From NCBI GenBank assembly GCA_023267195.1, contig JAHFNT010000004.1, positions 603 through 64,602 on the forward strand: a DNA stretch of 64,000 bases. The letters run 5' to 3'. The translations under genes and the position numbers were made by a program. Below the pieces are notes generated by a model. That model was not told the DNA's origin and searched no databases. It was given only the letters and a program-made list of their open reading frames with translations. The DNA comes from Candidatus Nomurabacteria bacterium (GTDB taxonomy: Bacteria > Patescibacteriota > Minisyncoccia > Phycocordibacterales > UBA9973). Below are positions 1 through 48,695 of this stretch, in pieces. Each line of letters starts with the position of its first letter. Position 1 is the first letter of the stretch.

Positions 1-1125
1 TCTCCACTCCTTGGCGATTTTGAGTTTAAGAGCAACGAGAGATCCTAGAGTCAAGAACATTAAGAGGGCTTGAGCGAGCCAGCCAACAAATGGAATGAGC
101 CACAAAACTGCATATAGCACCACTCCTAAAAGAGTAGTTTTCCAAGATATCTCAATTTCTCTCTTCGAAAAATATCTGTAGACAACACTGCCAAGTACTA
201 TCGGAGTAGCTATCCAAGCAAAGAGCATCAGAATACCAAAACCAAGCAAACCGGCTATGCCGAATGGGAAGCCTACCACTGTCACGAAAAATAGCATCGA
301 GATAGCTGGCGCCGCCACGAACACAAGTACACCTCTCGCCACTTCAAACCATGGACGCTCCGTCGCTGTATTTACCAACTCTCTGCTCCATCGGCGGAAC
401 AGCCTGCCGAGAATCAAAGCACAGACGAGCAAAGCAAACATTTTCACCGCAAAGATTCCAGAAAATATAACCTTCAGAGATTTAGCTGAAATATTTTTTG
501 TAACTCTTTGTTCAAAATCAACCTTACCTTTCACTATTGCTCCCTCTTCTTTTACTAATTCAGTTTTTGCTTTGTAAGTTAAATTGCCAGAAATTACCGC
601 CTTACTCCCGAGAGTAACTTTATCTGCTTCTATTTTCACATTGCCTCCGACGGTAGAATTCAAATAAACATTTCCCCCACCAATAGTCAGATCTCCGGCG
701 ACCGGCGCATCCAAGCGGAGAACACCAGCGCCAATGACTGCATCCCCTCCGACTCCAGCACCACTGACGGTGACTTGTCCTCCACCCAAAAGCAGATCTC
801 CCCCGACTTTTCCTGAGAGTACGACCGTACCTCCACCCGCGCGCAAATCATCGCCAACGTTTGAGAGAATCGTTACATTCCCTCCGCCGACCAAAAGATC
901 AGCACCGACATCTCCACTAATTACAACGTTGCCCCCAGCCGTGATAAGGTCGCCAAGCACGCTACCGGCACTAACCACACTCCCCCCGCCCATGTATAAA
1001 TCATTGGAAATTTTTTCATTACTCCCCACCGACGGCTGTTCCCCCGCTCGAAATTCGGCCGCCCAGGCGAGGAACGGTACAGCGAACAACACAAGAATCG
1101 CCACATATTTTAAAAATTTTTTCAT
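1..1125 (-). CDS. partial CDS (C-terminus off window): bactofilin/CcmA-like beta-helix repeat protein with signal peptide and C-terminal TM region
   Basis: ATG at 1125-1123 (minus) gives MKKFLKYVAILVLFAVPFLAWA, a signal-like N-terminus. Tandem GGGxVxxSGxVGGDL-type repeats follow, then hydrophobic C-terminal segments. I translated it by hand to the window start and met no stop. It is absent from the ORF track because it runs off the edge. The plus-strand ORFs 257..577 and 734..1147 are antisense to it. Confidence 0.5.
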   Translation of the reverse strand, partial: MKKFLKYVAILVLFAVPFLAWAAEFRAGEQPSVGSNEKISNDLYMGGGSVVSAGSVLGDLITAGGNVVISGDVGADLLVGGGNVTILSNVGDDLRAGGGTVVLSGKVGGDLLLGGGQVTVSGAGVGGDAVIGAGVLRLDAPVAGDLTIGGGNVYLNSTVGGNVKIEADKVTLGSKAVISGNLTYKAKTELVKEEGAIVKGKVDFEQRVTKNISAKSLKVIFSGIFAVKMFALLVCALILGRLFRRWSRELVNTATERPWFEVARGVLVFVAAPAISMLFFVTVVGFPFGIAGLLGFGILMLFAWIATPIVLGSVVYRYFSKREIEISWKTTLLGVVLYAVLWLIPFVGWLAQALLMFLTLGSLVALKLKIAKEWR

Positions 1126-3503: not shown

Positions 3504-3857
3504 ATGGGAAAAATGGATCAACCACCAAAATATGTTACTGACAAAATAGATCTAGCTAAAAAATCTGCGGAAAAAACCGCCAGTTTTGATTTAGAAAAAG
3601 AAAAAAATCTAGGTCTCGCTATTGAAGAACTCGCATTAAAATTTGCACTTGAAGATTTTGATAACAATCCTGTTTATGAATATGCGCGACAAAAAAGGCG
3701 CGCTGAACTGAAAAAGGAAATTCGAGATTTTGTGGAAAATGGAGGCTATAGGGCAATGTTACTTGAACTTCCTAAGGACAAAATAGTTTCTACTTTGAAA
3801 AAGCTGTGGGAACAAAAACTCGAAAGAGAAACCTCTAGAAAAGATCAAGCGGCCTAA
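3504..3857 (+). CDS. hypothetical Lys/Glu-rich protein
   Basis: 117 aa ORF in AT-rich background. No motif. Confidence 0.45.
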   Translation: MGKMDQPPKYVTDKIDLAKKSAEKTASFDLEKEKNLGLAIEELALKFALEDFDNNPVYEYARQKRRAELKKEIRDFVENGGYRAMLLELPKDKIVSTLKKLWEQKLERETSRKDQAA

Positions 3858-3886
3858 TATAGGGAACCCCAGGGGGCGACGAGCGC

Positions 3887-4303
3887 CTACCTGGGGCGAA
3901 ACACGAGGATCTTAGCGCCTTCCTTTTTTATGTGCGGAGTGACCCGCACCCACGCGATATCTGGGTCCTCCATTACCCAGTCGCGATCGATTTCTTGCCA
4001 GCCTATGGGCTCATCGACGCACACGAACGGCACGAAGAGCCGGCCGTCTGACGCGCGCCGTATGGAGCCATAGAGAAACACTTTGAATCTACCGAAGAGC
4101 TCTCGGAGAGCCTCGGGGTTTCGAAGCATTCCTCTACCGTCGGCCAGATTGAGTATCCGGTTCACCTTTGAAAGGTCAAAAATGGTGGGACCGGAGTTCT
4201 CTAGCTCGGGGTGAAGAGGGATCGCTCCCTCGATCGGGCAGACCGTGCTGGAAGCATAGTCTGCGTGAACGACGTATTGGTTTGGCACCAGATGCAGAGC
4301 CAT
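3887..4303 (-). CDS. hypothetical protein encoded in a GC-rich islet
   Basis: 138 aa with G/C-dominated codons, unlike the neighbours. Strong SD (AAAGGAGAGGAGC) then ATG. Upstream TTGACA -35-like box about 40 nt 5' of the start. A CCCCAGG/CCTGGGG hairpin overlaps the stop. Confidence 0.55.
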   Translation of the reverse strand: MALHLVPNQYVVHADYASSTVCPIEGAIPLHPELENSGPTIFDLSKVNRILNLADGRGMLRNPEALRELFGRFKVFLYGSIRRASDGRLFVPFVCVDEPIGWQEIDRDWVMEDPDIAWVRVTPHIKKEGAKILVFRPR

Positions 4304-4372
4304 GCTCCTCTCCTTTCTTGGAACTTTGATTAAAAGACTATTCCTTTAAAAGAGTTTGTCAAATACCACGTA

Positions 4373-6937: not shown

Positions 6938-7280
6938 CAAGCCCTGTATCCTATAAGCCGAATTCTGTAGTTCCGACCAAGGTCGGACGATAGCAATTTG
7001 TCTAGGTCCTCAATTACTTTCGGACTCAAGCGATTCTTCCCTCGACTACGCTCGGGACTAGTCCTGAGCTTGTCGAAGGACACGATCTTGCACAGGAGTA
7101 AGTATTTAGCCGTTTCACCCCTTCGGCCGAAGCCTCAGGACTCGTCTCTGTTCGCAACTCCACATTGCTGTGGGAGGGCGTTACCCTCTACTTATTTTCG
7201 CCCTGCATAAATACAGGGTGAACTGTGTTCGGACTTTCCTCTCCGACCTGGGTCGGAGTAGCTATCAAGATACAGGACCA
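6938..7280 (-). ncRNA. rnpB: RNase P RNA, bacterial type A
   Basis: Minus-strand read shows P1 GGUCCUGUAUC paired with GAUACAGGGCU. It has the P3 hairpin CUCCGACC-CAG-GUCGGAG, the P4 5' strand AGGAAAGUCCGAAC, GGGUAACGCC, UGCGAACAGAGACGAG, GGGGUGAAACGGC and CCUAGACAAAUUGC. The P4 3' strand ACAGAAUUCGGCUUAUAGG is compensatory to GUCCGAA. These match the universally conserved M1 RNA blocks, and at about 343 nt the length is right. Confidence 0.85.
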
Positions 7281-9134: not shown

Positions 9135-9204
9135 TTCCTTAATTTTAAGTTAAATTAAAAATTATTATAGCAACTAGTCAAAAAATTGCAATAGATTTTC
9201 CTCC

Positions 9205-9262
9205 ATAAACAGAGAAGCCCACCCGAGACGGAGAGGGTGAGCCTCTCGCGCCCCGGGTGGGC
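9205..9262 (-). terminator. intrinsic terminator after small ORF A
   Basis: GCCCACCCG...CGGGTGGGC stem enclosing a GAGAGG/CCTCTC sub-hairpin, followed on the minus strand by UUCUCUGUUUAU. Confidence 0.5.
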
Positions 9263-9266
9263 GATG

Positions 9267-9482
9267 CTACCACCTCAGATAGTTGTGTCTCTGCGCCGAT
9301 AGCTCGAAGCGCTTGAGGGCCTCCATATCCTCAAGCGTGAGGATGGCCACCCGAAACCCCCTATAGAACGAAGTCTCGGGCACAACGACCTCCATACTCT
9401 CCTCGTGGCTCGCGCGGAGAGTAGCCAGTCGAGGTATGGGAACAGTTTTGTCGCCCAGGGTCTCTTCCGGATCATTGGACAT
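9267..9482 (-). CDS. small GC-rich hypothetical protein (module A, about 71 aa from the ATG)
   Basis: SD AGGAG then ATG. Strongly GC-biased codons. Sits between promoter A and terminator A. No recognisable domain. Confidence 0.4.
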   Translation of the reverse strand: MSNDPEETLGDKTVPIPRLATLRASHEESMEVVVPETSFYRGFRVAILTLEDMEALKRFELSAQRHNYLRW

Positions 9483-9537
9483 TTTCACTCCTTCTGGGCC
9501 TTGTGGCCCAACTCAACGAACTTTTGAAACTACCGAC

Positions 9538-9566
9538 ATTGTACACCTCTTTGGCTTTTTTGTCAA
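9538..9566 (-). promoter_or_regulatory. near-consensus sigma70 promoter A (TTGACA-17-TACAAT)
   Basis: Minus strand TTGACAaaaaagccaaagaggtgTACAAT, followed by the conserved leader GUAGUUUCAAAAGUUCGUUGAGUUGGGCC-acaa-GGCCC hairpin and the SD. Confidence 0.6.
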
Positions 9567-9582
9567 GTTTGGCGGGTAATAT

Positions 9583-9612
9583 AAAGAAAAAAGGCCGCCG
9601 GTGAAGGCGACC
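9583..9612 (-). terminator. intrinsic terminator after small ORF B
   Basis: Minus strand GGUCGCC-uucacc-GGCGGCC followed by UUUUUUCUUU. Confidence 0.5.
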
Positions 9613-9644
9613 TGTTGCCGAGGACCGACGCGGTCTTTGGCGGA

Positions 9645-9791
9645 TTACTGCCCCCGTCCGAGGGCAGAGAGGAGACGCTCCGGGTAGAACACCCAGGGCA
9701 CTTCCTCGGGGGGCGGGGGCGAAGGAGGAAGGGGGCGGTGCCGGAGTTCCGGCACCCCGTTGTGAATTAGGATGTACCAGTGGACGTACAT
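9645..9791 (-). CDS. small GC-rich hypothetical protein (module B, about 48 aa from the internal ATG)
   Basis: ORF-track ORF 9645..9875 begins inside the -35 box of promoter B. The only start downstream of the predicted TSS is the ATG at 9791, with SD AAGGA 6 nt upstream. The product is Pro-rich. Confidence 0.3.
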   Translation of the reverse strand: MYVHWYILIHNGVPELRHRPLPPSPPPPEEVPWVFYPERLLSALGRGQ

Positions 9792-9846
9792 GCCATATCC
9801 TTTCCGGGCCAATAGGCCCAATTCGACGAACTTTGAAACTAACGGT

Positions 9847-9875
9847 ATTATACACCCTCCTGTATTTTTTGTCAA
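9847..9875 (-). promoter_or_regulatory. near-consensus sigma70 promoter B (TTGACA-17-TATAAT)
   Basis: Minus strand TTGACAaaaaatacaggagggtgTATAAT plus the same conserved leader with hairpin GGGCC-uauu-GGCCC. It is a paralogous copy of module A, about 75-80 percent identical over about 105 nt. Confidence 0.6.
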
Positions 9876-9898
9876 GCCCTTTGTGGGTAAAAGAAAAA

Positions 9899-9926
9899 CC
9901 GGGCTCCGCGATCGCGCGGGGCCCGG
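9899..9926 (-). terminator. intrinsic terminator after ORF C
   Basis: CCGGGCCCCGCG-cgat-CGCGGAGCCCGG hairpin followed on the minus strand by UUUUUCUUUU. Confidence 0.45.
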
Positions 9927-9953
9927 GGCGGGAGACGGACGAATCCGCTTTCC

Positions 9954-10163
9954 CTAGTACGAACGGCGTCCGAGATGGGAGAGATCGGGTACTTCCCCCA
10001 CCCCTTTCCGACGCCTGCGTTCGAACGTCGTCGGATGGAGTGTCGGTTCTGCCGAATCGGAAGAACCGAACCGGGAGAGGTCTGGAAAGCTTTCGTCGAT
10101 GTGTAGATCGTCCGCTAGGGACGATGAACACGATTCGGTCGGGATTTTGTTATCGTCTGGCAA
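9954..10163 (-). CDS. small GC-rich hypothetical protein (module C, TTG start)
   Basis: SD AAAGGAG 9 nt upstream of TTG. Lies directly downstream of tgt. Could be a spurious ORF in high-GC DNA. Confidence 0.25.
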   Translation of the reverse strand: MPDDNKIPTESCSSSLADDLHIDESFPDLSRFGSSDSAEPTLHPTTFERRRRKGVGEVPDLSHLGRRSY

Positions 10164-32851: not shown

Positions 32852-32911
32852 ATCTTATACCTTATAGCTTATGTAAATAAAAAACAAGAAATATCACTAC
32901 TACAATTGCGA

Positions 32912-32949
32912 AGGCCCCGACGCTGTTCTCCTTTCGGAAGCGTCGGGGC
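32912..32949 (-). terminator. terminator of the GC-rich three-gene insert
   Basis: GGCCCCGACGCT...AGCGTCGGGGCC, a 12 bp stem followed on the minus strand by a T-rich tract. Confidence 0.5.
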
Positions 32950-32983
32950 CCGCGTGAGCGATATGCTCGATTGTGTGAACTAA

Positions 32984-33640
32984 CTACTGGGACGGCGAGA
33001 TCCCGGGGTGGGCATCTTCGCCGGTCGCCCCGCAGTTGAGGCACTTGTAGCGCACCCCACTGCGGACCATCAGGCTCCCGCACTCGTGGCAGTTGGGTGC
33101 GTCGGTGCTGTTCTGAAAGGGCTCGTTGTGTCCGCCAGAAACGATTGGACCAACACACGGATGCGGCTCCATACCGTCCACGGGCTGGAAATCGACCACC
33201 GGCTTGTGAGTCGGAGCCGCCACCGGCCTGACCGACAGGAACCGCGACGCAAGCCAGCGGACGATGTAGTCCACAAGACTCTCGGCGATGGGGATCTCCG
33301 GGTTCTTCGTGTAGCCCGACGGCTCGAACCGCATGTGGCTGAACTTCTCGACCAGGGCGTCGAGCGGCACGCCGTACTGGAGCGTGAGGGAGATGGCCGT
33401 CGCGAAAGCGTTCATGAGACCCGAGATCGTGGAGCCTTCCTTGGCCATCGTCAGGAAGATCTCCCCCGGGGTGCCGTCCTCGTAGAGGCCGACGGTGATG
33501 TAGCCCTCGTGCCCCGCGACCGAGAACTTGTGCGTGAGCGCGCGCCGCTCGTCGGGCAGCTTGCGGCGTCGTGGGGCGGCGTTGGCTCGCGCGAACGCGA
33601 GCACGACGCCCGGCGGGAAGAGAAATTCACCACTTTTCAT
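32984..33640 (-). CDS. TSCPD-domain protein with C-terminal zinc ribbon (stand-alone homolog of the class II RNR C-terminal domain)
   Basis: FSVAGHEGYITVGLYEDGTPGEIFLTMAKEGSTISGLMNAFATAISLTLQYGVPLDALVEKF matches the TSCPD domain. C-terminal CHECG...CLNCG. SD GAAGGAGGG. Strong GC3 bias. Confidence 0.65.
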   Translation of the reverse strand: MKSGEFLFPPGVVLAFARANAAPRRRKLPDERRALTHKFSVAGHEGYITVGLYEDGTPGEIFLTMAKEGSTISGLMNAFATAISLTLQYGVPLDALVEKFSHMRFEPSGYTKNPEIPIAESLVDYIVRWLASRFLSVRPVAAPTHKPVVDFQPVDGMEPHPCVGPIVSGGHNEPFQNSTDAPNCHECGSLMVRSGVRYKCLNCGATGEDAHPGISPSQ

Positions 33641-33664
33641 ATTAGGGCCCTCCTTCGGCCCCTT

Positions 33665-33892
33665 TTACCATTTTGCCCGGAGACGCCGGGCGGCGTTTCT
33701 GCGATCTCTCGCGCATGAATTTCGGTTTTTGCACCTAGGGCACTTGTAACATTCGTGCCCACCGTGCTTAACCAGCTCAGTGTAACTTCCACACAAGGTA
33801 CACCGAGCCTGTAGTGGATTGAGTGGATTGGTGGGCGACCAAAGGTAGTCGTAGCGGGACGTTGGGCTTAACCCAATTTCATCTCTTGGCAT
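33665..33892 (-). CDS. small zinc-ribbon protein (CxxC...CxxC)
   Basis: 75 aa. CTLCG...CPRC. SD GGGAGG. GC-rich. Confidence 0.5.
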   Translation of the reverse strand: MPRDEIGLSPTSRYDYLWSPTNPLNPLQARCTLCGSYTELVKHGGHECYKCPRCKNRNSCARDRRNAARRLRAKW

Positions 33893-34059
33893 GCCAACCT
33901 CCCGTTAATACTATTATTCGTAGTGACACAGCAGTCACTACAAAGCCCACAGACGCTGGGGCGGGTGAGAACCCCGCACTTCTCACACCTTACCAACGAA
34001 GGCGGCTTCATTCCCCATCCCGGAAACAGAAACTGCATAAGGAAGGATTTTAATGTCAT
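33868..34059 (-). CDS. small zinc-ribbon protein (CxxC...CxxC)
   Basis: CEKCG...CGLCSDCC. The internal ATG at 34059 is preceded by SD GAGGGGAGCGAGG. The ORF-track start at 34101 would be leaderless from the promoter. Confidence 0.45.
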   Translation of the reverse strand: MTLKSFLMQFLFPGWGMKPPSLVRCEKCGVLTRPSVCGLCSDCCVTTNNSINGRLACQEMKLG

Positions 34060-34105
34060 CCTCGCTCCCCTCGCTTTCTTTTTTTGTTTTAGGAACTTCA
34101 TCTAA

Positions 34106-42175: not shown

Positions 42176-42203
42176 TTGACAAACAAGTTATCTTTGATAT
42201 GAT
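42176..42203 (+). promoter_or_regulatory. promoter of the thrS leader (TTGACA-16-TATGAT)
   Basis: TTGACAaacaagttatctttgaTATGAT immediately upstream of Stem I. Confidence 0.5.
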
Positions 42204-42204
42204 T

Positions 42205-42360
42205 GGTCCTATAGAGATTGTTGTGTTTACCAAGCACAATCCTGTCTTGACAGGACCCGAAAAGGCTAATCTATAAGCATAAAAAGAGCAAAGTTGGGTG
42301 GAACCGCGAAGTAGACTCGCCCCGACAAAAAATGAGAACTTTTCATTTTTTGTCGGGGCG
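42205..42360 (+). promoter_or_regulatory. T-box riboswitch leader (Thr), compact Stem I plus antiterminator/terminator
   Basis: T-box sequence AGUUGGGUGGAACCGCG at 42292-42308 with the UGGAACC bulge. The overlapping terminator CGCCCCGACAAAAAAUGA-gaac-UCAUUUUUUGUCGGGGCG plus U-run lies at 42318-42365. Stem I carries AGAGA and a loop UUUACCAAG, i.e. Thr codon ACC followed by A. The discriminator-pairing position (A) fits the U73 of the local tRNA-Thr. Confidence 0.6.
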
Positions 42361-42392
42361 ATTTTAATTTTATTAATAATTTTTTAAAAAAT

Positions 42393-46117: not shown

Positions 46118-46120
<3 letters not shown>

Positions 46121-46831
46121 TTCTCTAAAATAAAATACGTCATCCCCATTTAAGCCCTTTTTGTCATCAAAATCGCGGGCGTCAATAATTGAAATTCTTA
46201 ATTTTTTTACTAAGTAAGCCTGTTGTCGAATATGATTGACTATGGTGTGCCAATCAAATTTTATATCGCCGAAAATTTCTTTGTCTGGTTCAAAAGTTAT
46301 GACCGTACCGTGCAGTTTTGAGGCACCGATCTTTTTTACCGCCGACTTTTTCTTGCCCTGTGAATATTCTTGCAAATATTTTCCACCATCTCGGCATACT
46401 TCTGCCCTGCAATAAATAGAAAGGGCATTCACCACCGAGGCCCCAACACCGTGCAAGCCTCCAGAAACTTTATACCCTTCACCTCCGAATTTTCCCCCCG
46501 CATGTAAAGTTGTCATGACTGTCTCGAGCGCAGAAACTTTTGTTTTCTTGTGCATGTCAACAGGAATACCTCGGCCATTATCTGCAACACGAATGCGATT
46601 ATCCGGAAGTAAAACAATTTCTATGTCATTACAAAAACCACCCATGGCTTCGTCGCGGGAATTGTCAAAAATCTCCCAGACGAGGTGGTGCAATCCATCC
46701 GGTCCAGTTGTCCCAATATACATACCTGGACGTTTCCTGACGGGCTCTAGGCCTTCTAAAACGGAAATGTCAGAGGCATCATAATGATGGCCTTTATCGC
46801 CATCCTTTTTAACCGTCTCGTCTTTTGCCAT
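46118..46831 (-). CDS. gyrB: DNA gyrase subunit B, N-terminal GHKL ATPase fragment
   Basis: HHLVWEIFDNSRDEAMGG, NGRGIP and GLHGVGASVVNALS ATP-lid motifs. Extended -10 TGCTATAAT about 10 nt upstream of the start. Confidence 0.8.
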
Positions 46832-46984
46832 ACAAGGATATTATAGCATTAAATGAGGAGCATAAACAAGCCGTATTTTGCTTGTTTAATGTCCGAATGC
46901 CAATGCTATATGGTAATCCATATAGCAGAAATTTAATGCTTTTGCTAGTAAAAATTTAAAGAAATTTGTGCATAAAAATAGGGT

Positions 46985-47365
46985 GGAGGTCGCCCGCGTG
47001 AAGCGAACGACCTCCGATACGACTACCAGATTTCCTCCCCCCTTGCCGCCACGGAAGCAGGGTCAGCGTCCTCTGGGGGATAAGAACGCTCACCCTCCTC
47101 GGCCCGTTTCTCGTCCGACCGAACGACAGCACTCGATTCCCCATCTCGGGGAAGACGACGCAGTCGAGGCTTCGATCGAACAAGGCAGTCGCTACTGAAC
47201 GGGTCAAGCTCCAGGTGTCCCATGACTTCTCCTTCTGCTCACAGACGCATACTTCGCATGCAGGTGAGCATGCTGGGTACAAACACTTTATGCCCAAGAT
47301 GCTCACCTCATGGAAAAACCTAAAAGAACAAAATACCAGTCTTCGTTAGAAGGCTGGTATTTAGG
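46985..47365. other. GC-rich hairpin-rich intergenic element (candidate structured RNA), strand unresolved
   Basis: Stable hairpins: GGAGGTCG...CGACCTCC (46988-47030) with T-run on the minus strand, GGTGAGCAT-27nt-ATGCTCACC (about 47265-47315), and AAATACCAGtCTTCgttaGAAGgCTGGTATTT (47333-47364). ORFs here are Arg-rich and one reads through a terminator hairpin. Confidence 0.35.
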
Positions 47366-47558
47366 TTGTAAGTTTTTGTTTAGGAATTTTACAGCGCAAA
47401 TATCAGCCCTCTAAGTGAGGATTGAATGAGAAAGAGGACCTTAATTGCGTGTAATTTATTCACGCTTAAAGTGTAGCAATTATTTTTTAGATGTAAATAC
47501 ATACCTGTGGAAAAGTGCGCGGGTTTACTTTTTAGCTATTTTTCTTTATATTAGAGGA

Positions 47559-48695
47559 ATGAATTATGAAATTTCTTCCAGCGAGGAAAAGTCGCTCCGT
47601 GAAAGCCTAGAAACGCGTACCGACACCGAAGCGCTTCGCATGAGGCGATATCTCTCGATGCCGGACCTCTCCCGGACATCCGGAAGCCCGATTAAAGAAA
47701 TCGTGGATCGAATCTTGGGTAGTTCGTACTTTCAAGAATTAGACGTTATTAAGATTCCAGAAATTGTCCCGGCTGATATAAGTTTTGACCTCTTTGATTT
47801 CCCCAAAGACCACCCAGCGAGAAGCAAGTCTGACACCTACTATGTAGATGAGAAAAATATTTTAAGAACTCACACCACCGTGATGTGGTATTACTACCTA
47901 CATCATGACGAGGTTAAAAAAAGAATTCAAGCAAATAAAGCAGTGGGCGCTTTTTGTTTTGGTAAGGTATACCGAAAAGATGAGATCGACAGAAAACACA
48001 TGAACGTGTTTCATCAAATTGACGGCTGGTATCTCGCACCGAAATCTATCAAAACAATAACTCAAAAGGATTTAGAGGAAGCACTCAGCAATATCGCTAA
48101 AGCGGTGTTCGGTCCAGAGGTGAAATATCGTCTGAACAAAGATACCTTTCCTTACACTGATCCATCACTGGAAATGGAAGTGGATATAAACAGCAATTGG
48201 GTAGAAGTCGTAGGCTGCGGAGTGGTAAAAGGAAGCGTACTTGAAACATTAGGAGTGGACTCTTCTAAATATACTGGTTGGGCTTTCGGTTTTGGTCTTG
48301 AAAGACTGGCAATAGTAAGTATGGAATTGCCAGATATCCGTCTCCTCTGGTCAGAGGATCCACGTGTAGTTAAACAATTAAAATTGGGTCAGAAATTTGT
48401 GGAAGTAAGCAAATACCCTCCGATTGTGCGTGATATTTCTTTTGTAGTAGAAAATGATTTTATTCCAAATGATTATTTTGATTTCGTACGAGAATTGGCG
48501 CCTGGACTGGTAGAACAAGTAGAACTTTTAGATAAATATGAAAATGCTGAGAAATTTGGCGCAGGAAAAATAAGTTACGCCTACAGGGTAACTTATCGCT
48601 CGCTCGATCGAACACTTACAGGAGAAGAAATAGATACAATTCATAAAAAACTTGAGTCTGAAACAGCAAAAGTTTTCTCCGCAACCATACGCTAG
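47559..48695 (+). CDS. pheS: phenylalanyl-tRNA synthetase alpha subunit
   Basis: Class II motifs, FPYTDPSLEME... Start moved to Met-39 of the track ORF (SD AGAGGAA). Upstream promoter TTTACT-17-TATATT. Confidence 0.85.
   Translation: MNYEISSSEEKSLRESLETRTDTEALRMRRYLSMPDLSRTSGSPIKEIVDRILGSSYFQELDVIKIPEIVPADISFDLFDFPKDHPARSKSDTYYVDEKNILRTHTTVMWYYYLHHDEVKKRIQANKAVGAFCFGKVYRKDEIDRKHMNVFHQIDGWYLAPKSIKTITQKDLEEALSNIAKAVFGPEVKYRLNKDTFPYTDPSLEMEVDINSNWVEVVGCGVVKGSVLETLGVDSSKYTGWAFGFGLERLAIVSMELPDIRLLWSEDPRVVKQLKLGQKFVEVSKYPPIVRDISFVVENDFIPNDYFDFVRELAPGLVEQVELLDKYENAEKFGAGKISYAYRVTYRSLDRTLTGEEIDTIHKKLESETAKVFSATIR

Follow-up and report, generated by a model that had tools for sequence, protein, structure and literature searches.

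We analysed a stretch of 64,000 nucleotides from a Candidatus Nomurabacteria contig, here called the window, in which the divergent neighbours gyrB (ATG at 46831, minus strand) and pheS (ATG at 47559, plus strand) lie 727 nt apart (Table 1). A previous sequence-only reading had drawn attention to a GC-rich block between the two genes, with AT-rich promoters as flanks and three strong hairpins, and all of these were recovered. Promoter sequences of gyrB and pheS are present on the two sides, and with a 150-nt sliding window the GC island extended from 46953 to 47297 with 55.7% GC, compared to a window mean of 39.8%; the 100-nt bins at 47000–47150 peaked at 0.61–0.63. The gyrB promoter appears from its layout to be of the leaderless type, and its −10-to-ATG geometry recurs in other genes of the window.

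Table 1. Features of the gyrB–pheS spacer and the GC-rich ORFs of the window that are led by a Shine-Dalgarno (SD)-like motif.
Feature	Position	Strand	Description
gyrB start and proximal extended −10 box TGCTATAAT	46829–46848	−	ATG 46831–46829, box 46848–46840, 8 nt between them
Degenerate second copy of the ancestral gyrB promoter region (TAGCAAAAGC...TGCTATATGG)	46904–46955	−	From alignments and hairpin scan
Left hairpin, intrinsic-terminator-like	46985–47015	−	13 bp, 9 G–C pairs; ACCCTATTTT 3′ of the stem on the minus strand; T-run, then gyrB promoter; terminator call, predicted end of the minus-strand unit
66-codon orphan ORF (MGHLELDPFSSDCLVRSKPRLRRLPRDGESS...EEIW-stop)	47023–47223	−	GC 0.62; stop TAG 47025–47023; from ORF list
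Shine-Dalgarno-like AAGGAG	47229–47234	−	5-nt spacer to the ATG at 47223
Small hairpin	47247–47261	−	Predicted 5′-UTR of the GC-rich unit, beside the middle hairpin
Middle hairpin	47262–47308	−	22-nt arms, 82% complementary; 22-bp stem in the predicted 5′-UTR of the GC-rich unit
Predicted terminator B:C (right hairpin)	47310–47362	−	Stem 47362–47331, U-rich run 47330–47310, −16.6 kcal/mol
Right hairpin	47331–47362	−	13–14 bp, A/T runs on both sides; B:C stem
Predicted antiterminator hairpin A:B	47346–47414	−	Arm A 47414–47389, arm B 47371–47346; 22 pairs
Predicted leaderless 24-codon ORF (V/M-NKLHAIKVLFLIQSSLRGLIFAL-stop)	47389–47463	−	Arm A comprises its last 8 codons and the stop
Promoter-like site TTTACA, 16-nt spacer, TACACT with TG	47470–47497	−	−10 ends 6 nt before GTG 47463
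pheS promoter TTTACT-17-TATATT, 6 nt, leaderless ATG 47559	47524–47561	+	Conserved in all relatives; right boundary of the insertion
SD-led GC-rich ORF	start 4303		138 aa
SD-led GC-rich ORF	start 9482		71 aa
SD-led GC-rich ORF	start 9791		48 aa
SD-led GC-rich ORF	start 10163		69 aa
SD-led GC-rich ORF	start 33640		218 aa
SD-led GC-rich ORF	start 33892		75 aa
SD-led GC-rich ORF	start 47223		66 aa; ORF of the GC-rich block

Based on 160 PheS-centred loci taken from genomes and metagenomes, gyrB and pheS were found as divergent neighbours in 51, with a gap that was typically 50–140 nt, and in relatives this short spacer consists of the two promoters back to back. All of the closest relatives (PheS 77–83% identical; L001, L002, L004, L082, L083 and L086–L089) have the short spacer, so the window carries approximately 550–640 extra bases, at about 46950–47500. 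By this comparison the GC-rich block is part of a lineage-specific insertion of approximately 550–640 bp. The region was base-for-base identical in three independent assemblies, including ENA ERZ27279977 and Logan SRR14366796, and the insertion is therefore not an assembly chimera. Relatives with an N-terminally extended PheS (P0012, P0046) were also checked and had no insertion. Other lineages carry unrelated inserts of 250–2350 nt in the same spacer, several of them with small HTH-type or other genes, and on these alignments the gyrB–pheS spacer is an indel hotspot. The degenerate copy of the gyrB promoter region, which includes a small hairpin at 46904–46927, has homologous counterparts beside the terminator in two of the other loci, L111 and L006. 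Two ideas on the wider context were discarded: an alternative genetic code, considered for an in-frame stop in gyrB, was rejected because the codon is TAA here and TTA in another assembly, and a replication origin was dropped because cumulative GC skew runs monotonically across the window.

RNA folding and RNA families

The region 46960–47380 folded better than its dinucleotide shuffles (z −4.67 for the plus and −6.37 for the minus strand). For the block itself (46975–47310) the minimum free energy was −155.5 kcal/mol on the minus strand (z −5.36) and −119 kcal/mol on the plus strand (z −2.11), and significant RNA structure of the block is limited to the minus strand. The earlier description of the block as hairpin-dense structured RNA is not borne out in its interior, as the three hairpins correspond to a predicted 5′-UTR stem (middle), the terminator of a predicted attenuator (right) and a predicted 3′ terminator (left), while the body of the ORF described below is unexceptional.

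In the search for known RNA families no Rfam family matched 46800–47600 at gathering scores, and at E ≤ 10 only noise-level miRNA-like hairpin matches were obtained; with gathering and permissive thresholds nothing relevant was found in the window, the region, L006 or the island at 9.1–10.3 kb. Models of the tmRNA clan and T-box models gave no match in 46800–47600 (E ≤ 10 for the former), nor did the covariance models of SRP RNA, 6S RNA and RNase P RNA in the region at E ≤ 10. ARAGORN, which also covers permuted tmRNA, detected three tRNAs in the whole window and no tmRNA, so that the hidden permuted tmRNA that had been suggested for checking was not found. Counted against a T-box leader was the leaderless start of pheS, which lies 6 nt from the −10 box. 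The block is outside all known RNA families and modestly unusual, and the absence of tmRNA, SRP RNA and T-box hallmarks noted by the sequence-only reading thus agrees with Rfam and ARAGORN. Elsewhere in the window, rnpB (RNase P RNA) was located at 6938–7277 on the minus strand with 98.7 bits, slightly below the gathering score of 100, and the sole T-box match, a weak one, lies at 42185–42327 upstream of thrS.

As an intergenic GC-rich island with strong hairpins in a genome of 40% GC, the block resembles unclassified structured non-coding RNAs of the kind that form rnpB- or tmRNA-like GC islands. It differs from them in that it is not conserved in relatives, has no Rfam match and includes an SD-led ORF, and in that the structure of its interior is not unusual. 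The suggestion of an unclassified non-coding RNA stands as far as known families are absent; a structural RNA is probably not encoded, and a non-coding role of the minus strand is kept as a serious rival explanation below.

The 66-codon ORF and other SD-led GC-rich ORFs

The two overlapping ORFs reported before do exist, one of 116 aa on the minus strand, running through the left hairpin, and one of 76 aa on the plus strand, which is the one annotated by NCBI and ENA. A third had been overlooked, and with it the statement that the block is without a credible ORF has to be revised. This is the minus-strand ORF of 66 codons, which has AAGGAG 5 nt ahead of its ATG and a TAG stop 7 nt ahead of the left hairpin terminator, and all three hairpins lie outside it. 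With this predicted translation-initiation signal and gene-like anatomy it may be coding. GC by codon position is 0.73/0.52/0.58, which is weakly periodic (p about 0.04). Folding of the ORF body gave z −2.15 (minus strand) and +0.20 (plus strand), which falls in the span of the values for other GC-rich ORFs here (z −2.0, −3.85 and −1.66), the last of which belongs to a Pfam-supported TSCPD/RNR-like protein.

The predicted product is an orphan. A word-based search of 5.8 billion clustered proteins returned only its own identical copy, and full HMMER against 1.84 billion representatives gave only a marginal match (E 7e-4) to a TPR-repeat protein (P0122), which was judged insufficient. Pfam, NCBIfam, PHROGs and PADLOC assigned no family to any of the small ORFs, the 66-aa product included. 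The sequence-only reading had named protein-like conservation among homologues as evidence against an RNA; beyond the identical copy no homologue of the 66-aa product was found in which such conservation could be seen, and the counterparts in L111 and L006 are unrelated. The product is predicted to be disordered: a single-sequence AlphaFold model had a pLDDT of 61.6, a pTM of 0.15 and almost no secondary structure, a low-confidence and uninformative result. We hold the coding reading of this ORF at a little under one half, because the product is an orphan, has almost no predicted structure and has unrelated interiors as counterparts in L111 and L006.

Those two loci nevertheless share the framework of the unit. 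L006 has a different GC-rich insert in the same place, with a promoter (TTGACA-16-TAATAT) and a terminator that are both on the same strand as in the window, and L111 has a terminator on the same strand as the left terminator of the window. Hairpins homologous to the left terminator occupy its position in both, with stem positions that have changed in both arms and are still paired. Read by eye, both loci have AAGGAG, an ATG, 54 codons and a stop 3–4 nt before the homologous terminator. The ends of the three units are homologous despite unalignable interiors: in pairwise protein and DNA alignments, the interiors and ORF products of the window, L111 and L006 scored no better than shuffles. In a protein search the 54-aa ORF of L111 was also an orphan.

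Within the window, a canonical SD ahead of a true ORF start is seen almost exclusively with GC-rich ORFs (Table 1). Any SD-like motif, even a weak one, was present upstream of the start in only 6 of the 43 long ORFs, and several native genes have a −10 box 6–8 nt before the ATG, which is the leaderless layout. One of the SD-led GC-rich ORFs encodes a bona fide TSCPD/RNR-like protein, and those that were looked up were all singletons in the protein collection. As the SD is nearly restricted to GC-rich islands, these islands look like a coherent, foreign-style gene class that includes the ORF starting at 47223. Of Parcubacteria 16S rRNAs, only about 48% are reported to have a detectable anti-SD motif (PMC9297842), and with the motif reportedly absent from about half of them AAGGAG may not act in this host.

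The GC-richness of the block looks foreign, and would mark an acquired origin rather than be evidence of a structural RNA gene. In this respect the 'foreign fragment' that had been offered as an alternative fits, the insertion being absent from the nearest relatives and sharing its GC-rich, SD-led signature with the other islands. The block resembles horizontally acquired islands of orphan small genes ('morons') in being GC-deviant, with a promoter and terminator predicted to be its own, SD-led unlike the host genes, absent from relatives and with an orphan product. It differs from them in lacking an identifiable mobility gene, attachment site or donor, and in lying inside the promoter region of an essential gene, where it is proposed to be gated by a conserved leader module.

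A conserved leader module

The sole promoter-like site facing into the block was found on the minus strand (47497..47470), and no such site was found for the block on the plus strand. Downstream of it lies a predicted leaderless ORF of 24 codons, which starts with GTG 6 nt after the −10 box, the same geometry as in gyrB and pheS. Its end falls in the first arm of the predicted antiterminator hairpin A:B (−21.4 kcal/mol, z −6.96), which is mutually exclusive with the predicted terminator hairpin B:C. The sequence 3′ of the B:C stem is UUUUGUUCUUUU.

Positions 47320–47466 are 81% identical to L111 over 81 nt and 76% identical to a third locus, L062, whereas the respective PheS proteins are only 70% and 66% identical. 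Despite indels the small ORF stays in frame (24, 26 and 24 codons in the window, L111 and L062), with homologous peptides (MNKSRFSISALVLIISTSFRRLIFAL in L111 and VQKLTAKHSVLLFWLFSRRLMLAL in L062) and a start 6–8 nt after the −10 box in all three. In the same order, the calculated energies were −21.4, −13.2 and −25.7 kcal/mol for A:B and −16.6, −16.2 and −19 kcal/mol for B:C. Covariation had been proposed as a check on structure. In an alignment of the three modules (A2), the 22 pairs of A:B align with 93.8% of cells paired; 17 of them are invariant and one is compensatory, which is indistinguishable from shuffles and thus gives no statistical covariation support.

An nhmmer profile of the module recovered only the three known copies among all loci, and two pattern scans of viral contigs for the module gave only chance matches in coding DNA. 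The nearest relatives of L111 (L016, L024) and of L062 (L068, L071) are without the module, and this distribution suggests that it may have spread by recombination at the gyrB–pheS locus rather than by simple vertical descent. The copies in the window and L111 face the GC-rich unit, not pheS, and their ORFs have no run of a single amino acid. In L062 it lies directly upstream of pheS and points at it, with the T-run of the terminator overlapping the pheS −35 box, and there an ATG-initiated frame reads MCKSLQQNIAFFFFGYFLEG, a peptide with FFFF whose stop falls in arm A. As the only such case, and one located in a T-rich tract, this candidate Phe leader is treated as a lead. When all loci were scanned for Phe-rich leader ORFs ahead of pheS, the matches were mostly artefacts antisense to the Lys-rich N terminus of gyrB. 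L062 also has a GC-rich ORF of 371 aa next to the module, and the idea that the GC-rich cargo of the window is a remnant of it was rejected as the two have no similarity.

Attenuators at aminoacyl-tRNA synthetase genes have been reviewed, including trpS and leuS in Streptomyces (PMC1262725). On the three sequences known, the module can be likened to classical attenuators (E. coli pheST/pheM, trp, his): a short, predicted translatable upstream ORF with in-frame homologues in L111 and L062 ends in the 5′ arm of the antiterminator, which competes with a terminator followed by a U-run. The differences are a small ORF that is predicted to be leaderless, three RNA segments rather than four and, in the window, a copy that lacks a run of regulatory codons, faces away from pheS and would gate an orphan GC-rich unit. 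A run of sensed codons with a matching downstream gene was found in L062 only, where the FFFF peptide is reminiscent of pheM, the Phe-rich leader of the pheST attenuator in E. coli. The combination of a highly structured transcript with a short peptide (24 aa) of hydrophobic or amphipathic character also resembles type I toxin-antitoxin loci. However, K, Q, S and R occur within the hydrophobic stretch, so that the peptide has no clean membrane helix, and there was neither an antisense RNA promoter nor a family match.

Possible explanations of the locus

The explanation that we favour, and hold tentatively at nearly an even judgement, is that the insertion is a minus-strand accessory unit in this Patescibacteria (Minisyncoccia/Nomurabacteria-like) genome, consisting of a small orphan gene behind a leader-peptide switch. 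Transcription would start at TTTACA-16-TGnTACACT and proceed directly into the leaderless 24-codon ORF, the last codons and stop of which would make up the 5′ arm A of the 22-bp hairpin A:B. Arm B could alternatively pair with C, giving the right hairpin as a terminator with its U-run. As long as no ribosome occupies A, A:B would form and RNA polymerase would read on; if a ribosome reaches the stop and covers A, B:C would form and transcription would end. The read-through transcript would carry the 22-bp hairpin in its 5′-UTR, AAGGAG-5-ATG and the 66-codon orphan ORF, possibly translated, and would end at the conserved left-hairpin terminator just before the gyrB promoter.

The GC-rich part could instead be a minus-strand non-coding RNA gated by the leader-peptide switch, with the 66-codon ORF as a by-product of GC-richness, and we consider this rather unlikely. 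In its favour, folding is highly significant and specific to the minus strand, the predicted 66-aa product is a disordered orphan, and by our own estimate a stop-free run of 66 codons would arise by chance about once in nine frames at 60% GC. The host may also lack SD-dependent initiation, and the unrelated interiors of L111 and L006 are also structured within the homologous framework (z −4.4 and −8.4). On the other hand, the UTR and terminator hairpins account for most of the significance, and the interior alone is at z −2.15. The spacing of SD and ATG and the position of the stop near the terminator recur in three unrelated interiors, which have no alignable conserved structure, and no Rfam family was matched. 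A small RNA on the plus strand, or a diverged representative of one of the known families (permuted tmRNA, SRP RNA, 6S RNA, T-box) is most improbable. The hairpin at 47331–47362 is terminator-like on the plus strand too, and the choice of the 76-aa plus-strand ORF by NCBI and ENA indicates that annotators found nothing better; against this, the plus strand folds weakly (block z −2.11, interior +0.20) and has no promoter-like site, ARAGORN found nothing, as did Rfam at E ≤ 10, and absence from close relatives does not fit a housekeeping RNA.

Another serious rival, though unlikely, is that the block is a non-functional remnant, consisting of DNA that is foreign or was scrambled locally, lies between duplicates of the gyrB promoter and is decaying, tolerated because of its own terminators; in that case it would have little significance. 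The insertion occurs in one lineage only, in a spacer that takes up unrelated inserts in others, with a gyrB-promoter-like sequence duplicated around it; the interiors of the window, L111 and L006 are unalignable and all products are orphans. However, promoter, leaderless ORF, switch, SD, ORF and terminator are intact and in the correct order, the module is 76–81% conserved while PheS is only 66–70% identical, and the sequence is identical in three assemblies. As the module occurs in the same spacer of three distant genomes, in both orientations and with nearest relatives lacking it, and as the ends are conserved around a variable cargo, a non-autonomous mobile element (MITE, IS200/605-type PATE or integron cassette) targeting the spacer was also considered; this we regard as very unlikely. 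The element is present as a single copy, and blastn against the window, 169 loci, plasmids and phages found no other, nor was one found in viral contigs. It has no convincing terminal inverted repeats and no clear target-site duplication, attC-type R′/R″ cores are not conserved (the core-site-like GTTAGAA is not conserved in L062, which is without GTTAG), and recombination between homologous flanks accounts for the distribution equally well.

The most interesting part of the insertion lies just outside the block that had been reported, namely the conserved small ORF, predicted to be leaderless, with its predicted antiterminator/terminator switch. To our knowledge, gene regulation in Patescibacteria is almost unexplored, the organisms being uncultured. 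It is possible, if doubtful, that the module is an undescribed leaderless leader-peptide attenuator of Patescibacteria, of a Phe type at the pheS gene of L062 and turned round in the window and L111, where it would gate a foreign cassette before gyrB. If so, L062 would have a classical Phe attenuator outside Proteobacteria and Actinobacteria, and the expression of the accessory element in the window and L111 would be coupled to the translation status of the cell. The module would be a testable candidate for ribosome-mediated attenuation in Patescibacteria. If the accessory-unit explanation holds, the locus also warns against the common assumption that GC-rich islands between the genes of AT-rich genomes are structural RNAs, as this one would be an acquired SD-led orphan gene in a host with mostly SD-less or leaderless genes. 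As a recombination hotspot, the gyrB–pheS spacer could be used to trace the flow of accessory DNA among Paceibacteria-type genomes.

Leader module upstream of pheS and probable leaderless starts

A homologue of the leader module, which pairs a leaderless small ORF with an antiterminator/terminator switch, was observed in Zambryskibacteria (locus L062, MHWY01000001.1, 3778-3912), where it lies directly upstream of pheS and in the same orientation as this gene. One leaderless frame of this module encodes MCKSLQQNIAFFFFGYFLEG, with its stop codon located within the antiterminator arm. In this CPR genome, the homologue is a candidate for a Phe attenuator acting on pheS. Throughout the window, many operon-first genes lack a Shine-Dalgarno motif and carry their -10 box 6-8 nt upstream of the ATG (e.g. 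at 46840-46831, 47547-47561, 54531, 3290 and 1624), which suggests that leaderless mRNAs are widespread in this genome.

RNA-family matches and GC-rich islands

Further RNA-family matches and GC-rich islands of the window are collected in the table. The score of the RNase P RNA is slightly below the Rfam gathering score of 100 for this class, and the RNA was therefore missed by a gathering-threshold scan. The T-box match ends in a 20-bp terminator-like hairpin (42315-42363) just before thrS (42393), and may represent a short or divergent T-box leader.

Features found elsewhere in the window
Feature	Position	Strand	Details
GC-rich island	634-1107		~55% GC
137-aa ORF in this island	734-1147	plus	
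GC-rich island	3818-4334		~55% GC
138-aa orphan ORF in this island	3887-4303	minus	AAGGAG-6-ATG
RNase P RNA class A	6938-7277	minus	98.7 bits
GC-rich island	9170-10163	minus	1 kb, 56% GC
GC-rich island	32878-33827		61-67% GC
TSCPD / ribonucleotide-reductase C-terminal-like protein	32984-33640	minus	218 aa
Two small Cys-rich ORFs after the TSCPD gene	33668-34101		75 + 77 aa
Weak T-box match upstream of thrS	42185-42363	plus	24.5 bits, E 0.21

The 1-kb island contains three small orphan ORFs (69, 48 and 71 aa), all led by a Shine-Dalgarno motif and each accompanied by a terminator-like hairpin. Two of the three are preceded by near-identical tandem promoters (CTTGACAAAAAA…TAYAAT) and also by 5'-UTR hairpins (TTGGGCC…GGCCC), and no match to the island was found in Rfam, Pfam, PHROGs or PADLOC. 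The mRNA fold of the 138-aa ORF gave a z of -3.85, and the 137-aa ORF had no family match. The TSCPD island is clearly foreign in composition relative to the 40% GC genome, and its 218-aa protein gene has a GC3 of 0.86 and the Shine-Dalgarno motif AAGGAGG.

In-frame stop in gyrB and variants in relatives

A single in-frame TAA at 46118-46120 interrupts the window gyrB (minus strand; context …FYFRE*EQELPS…). At this codon, another assembly of this organism (Logan, SRR14366796) reads TTA (Leu), which is the sole mismatch to the window across 3.3 kb. The comparison favours polymorphism between strains or an assembly error over recoding. In gyrB of another PheS-centred locus (L003, 3140-3200), a GC-rich palindrome (CCTCCGACTTGGAGG…CCTCCAAGTGGAGG) is inserted near the corresponding position. 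Additionally, a 36-nt hairpin is inserted at the pheS -35 box of locus L002 (3925-3975), between the direct repeats CCTTTAC/GGTTTAC.
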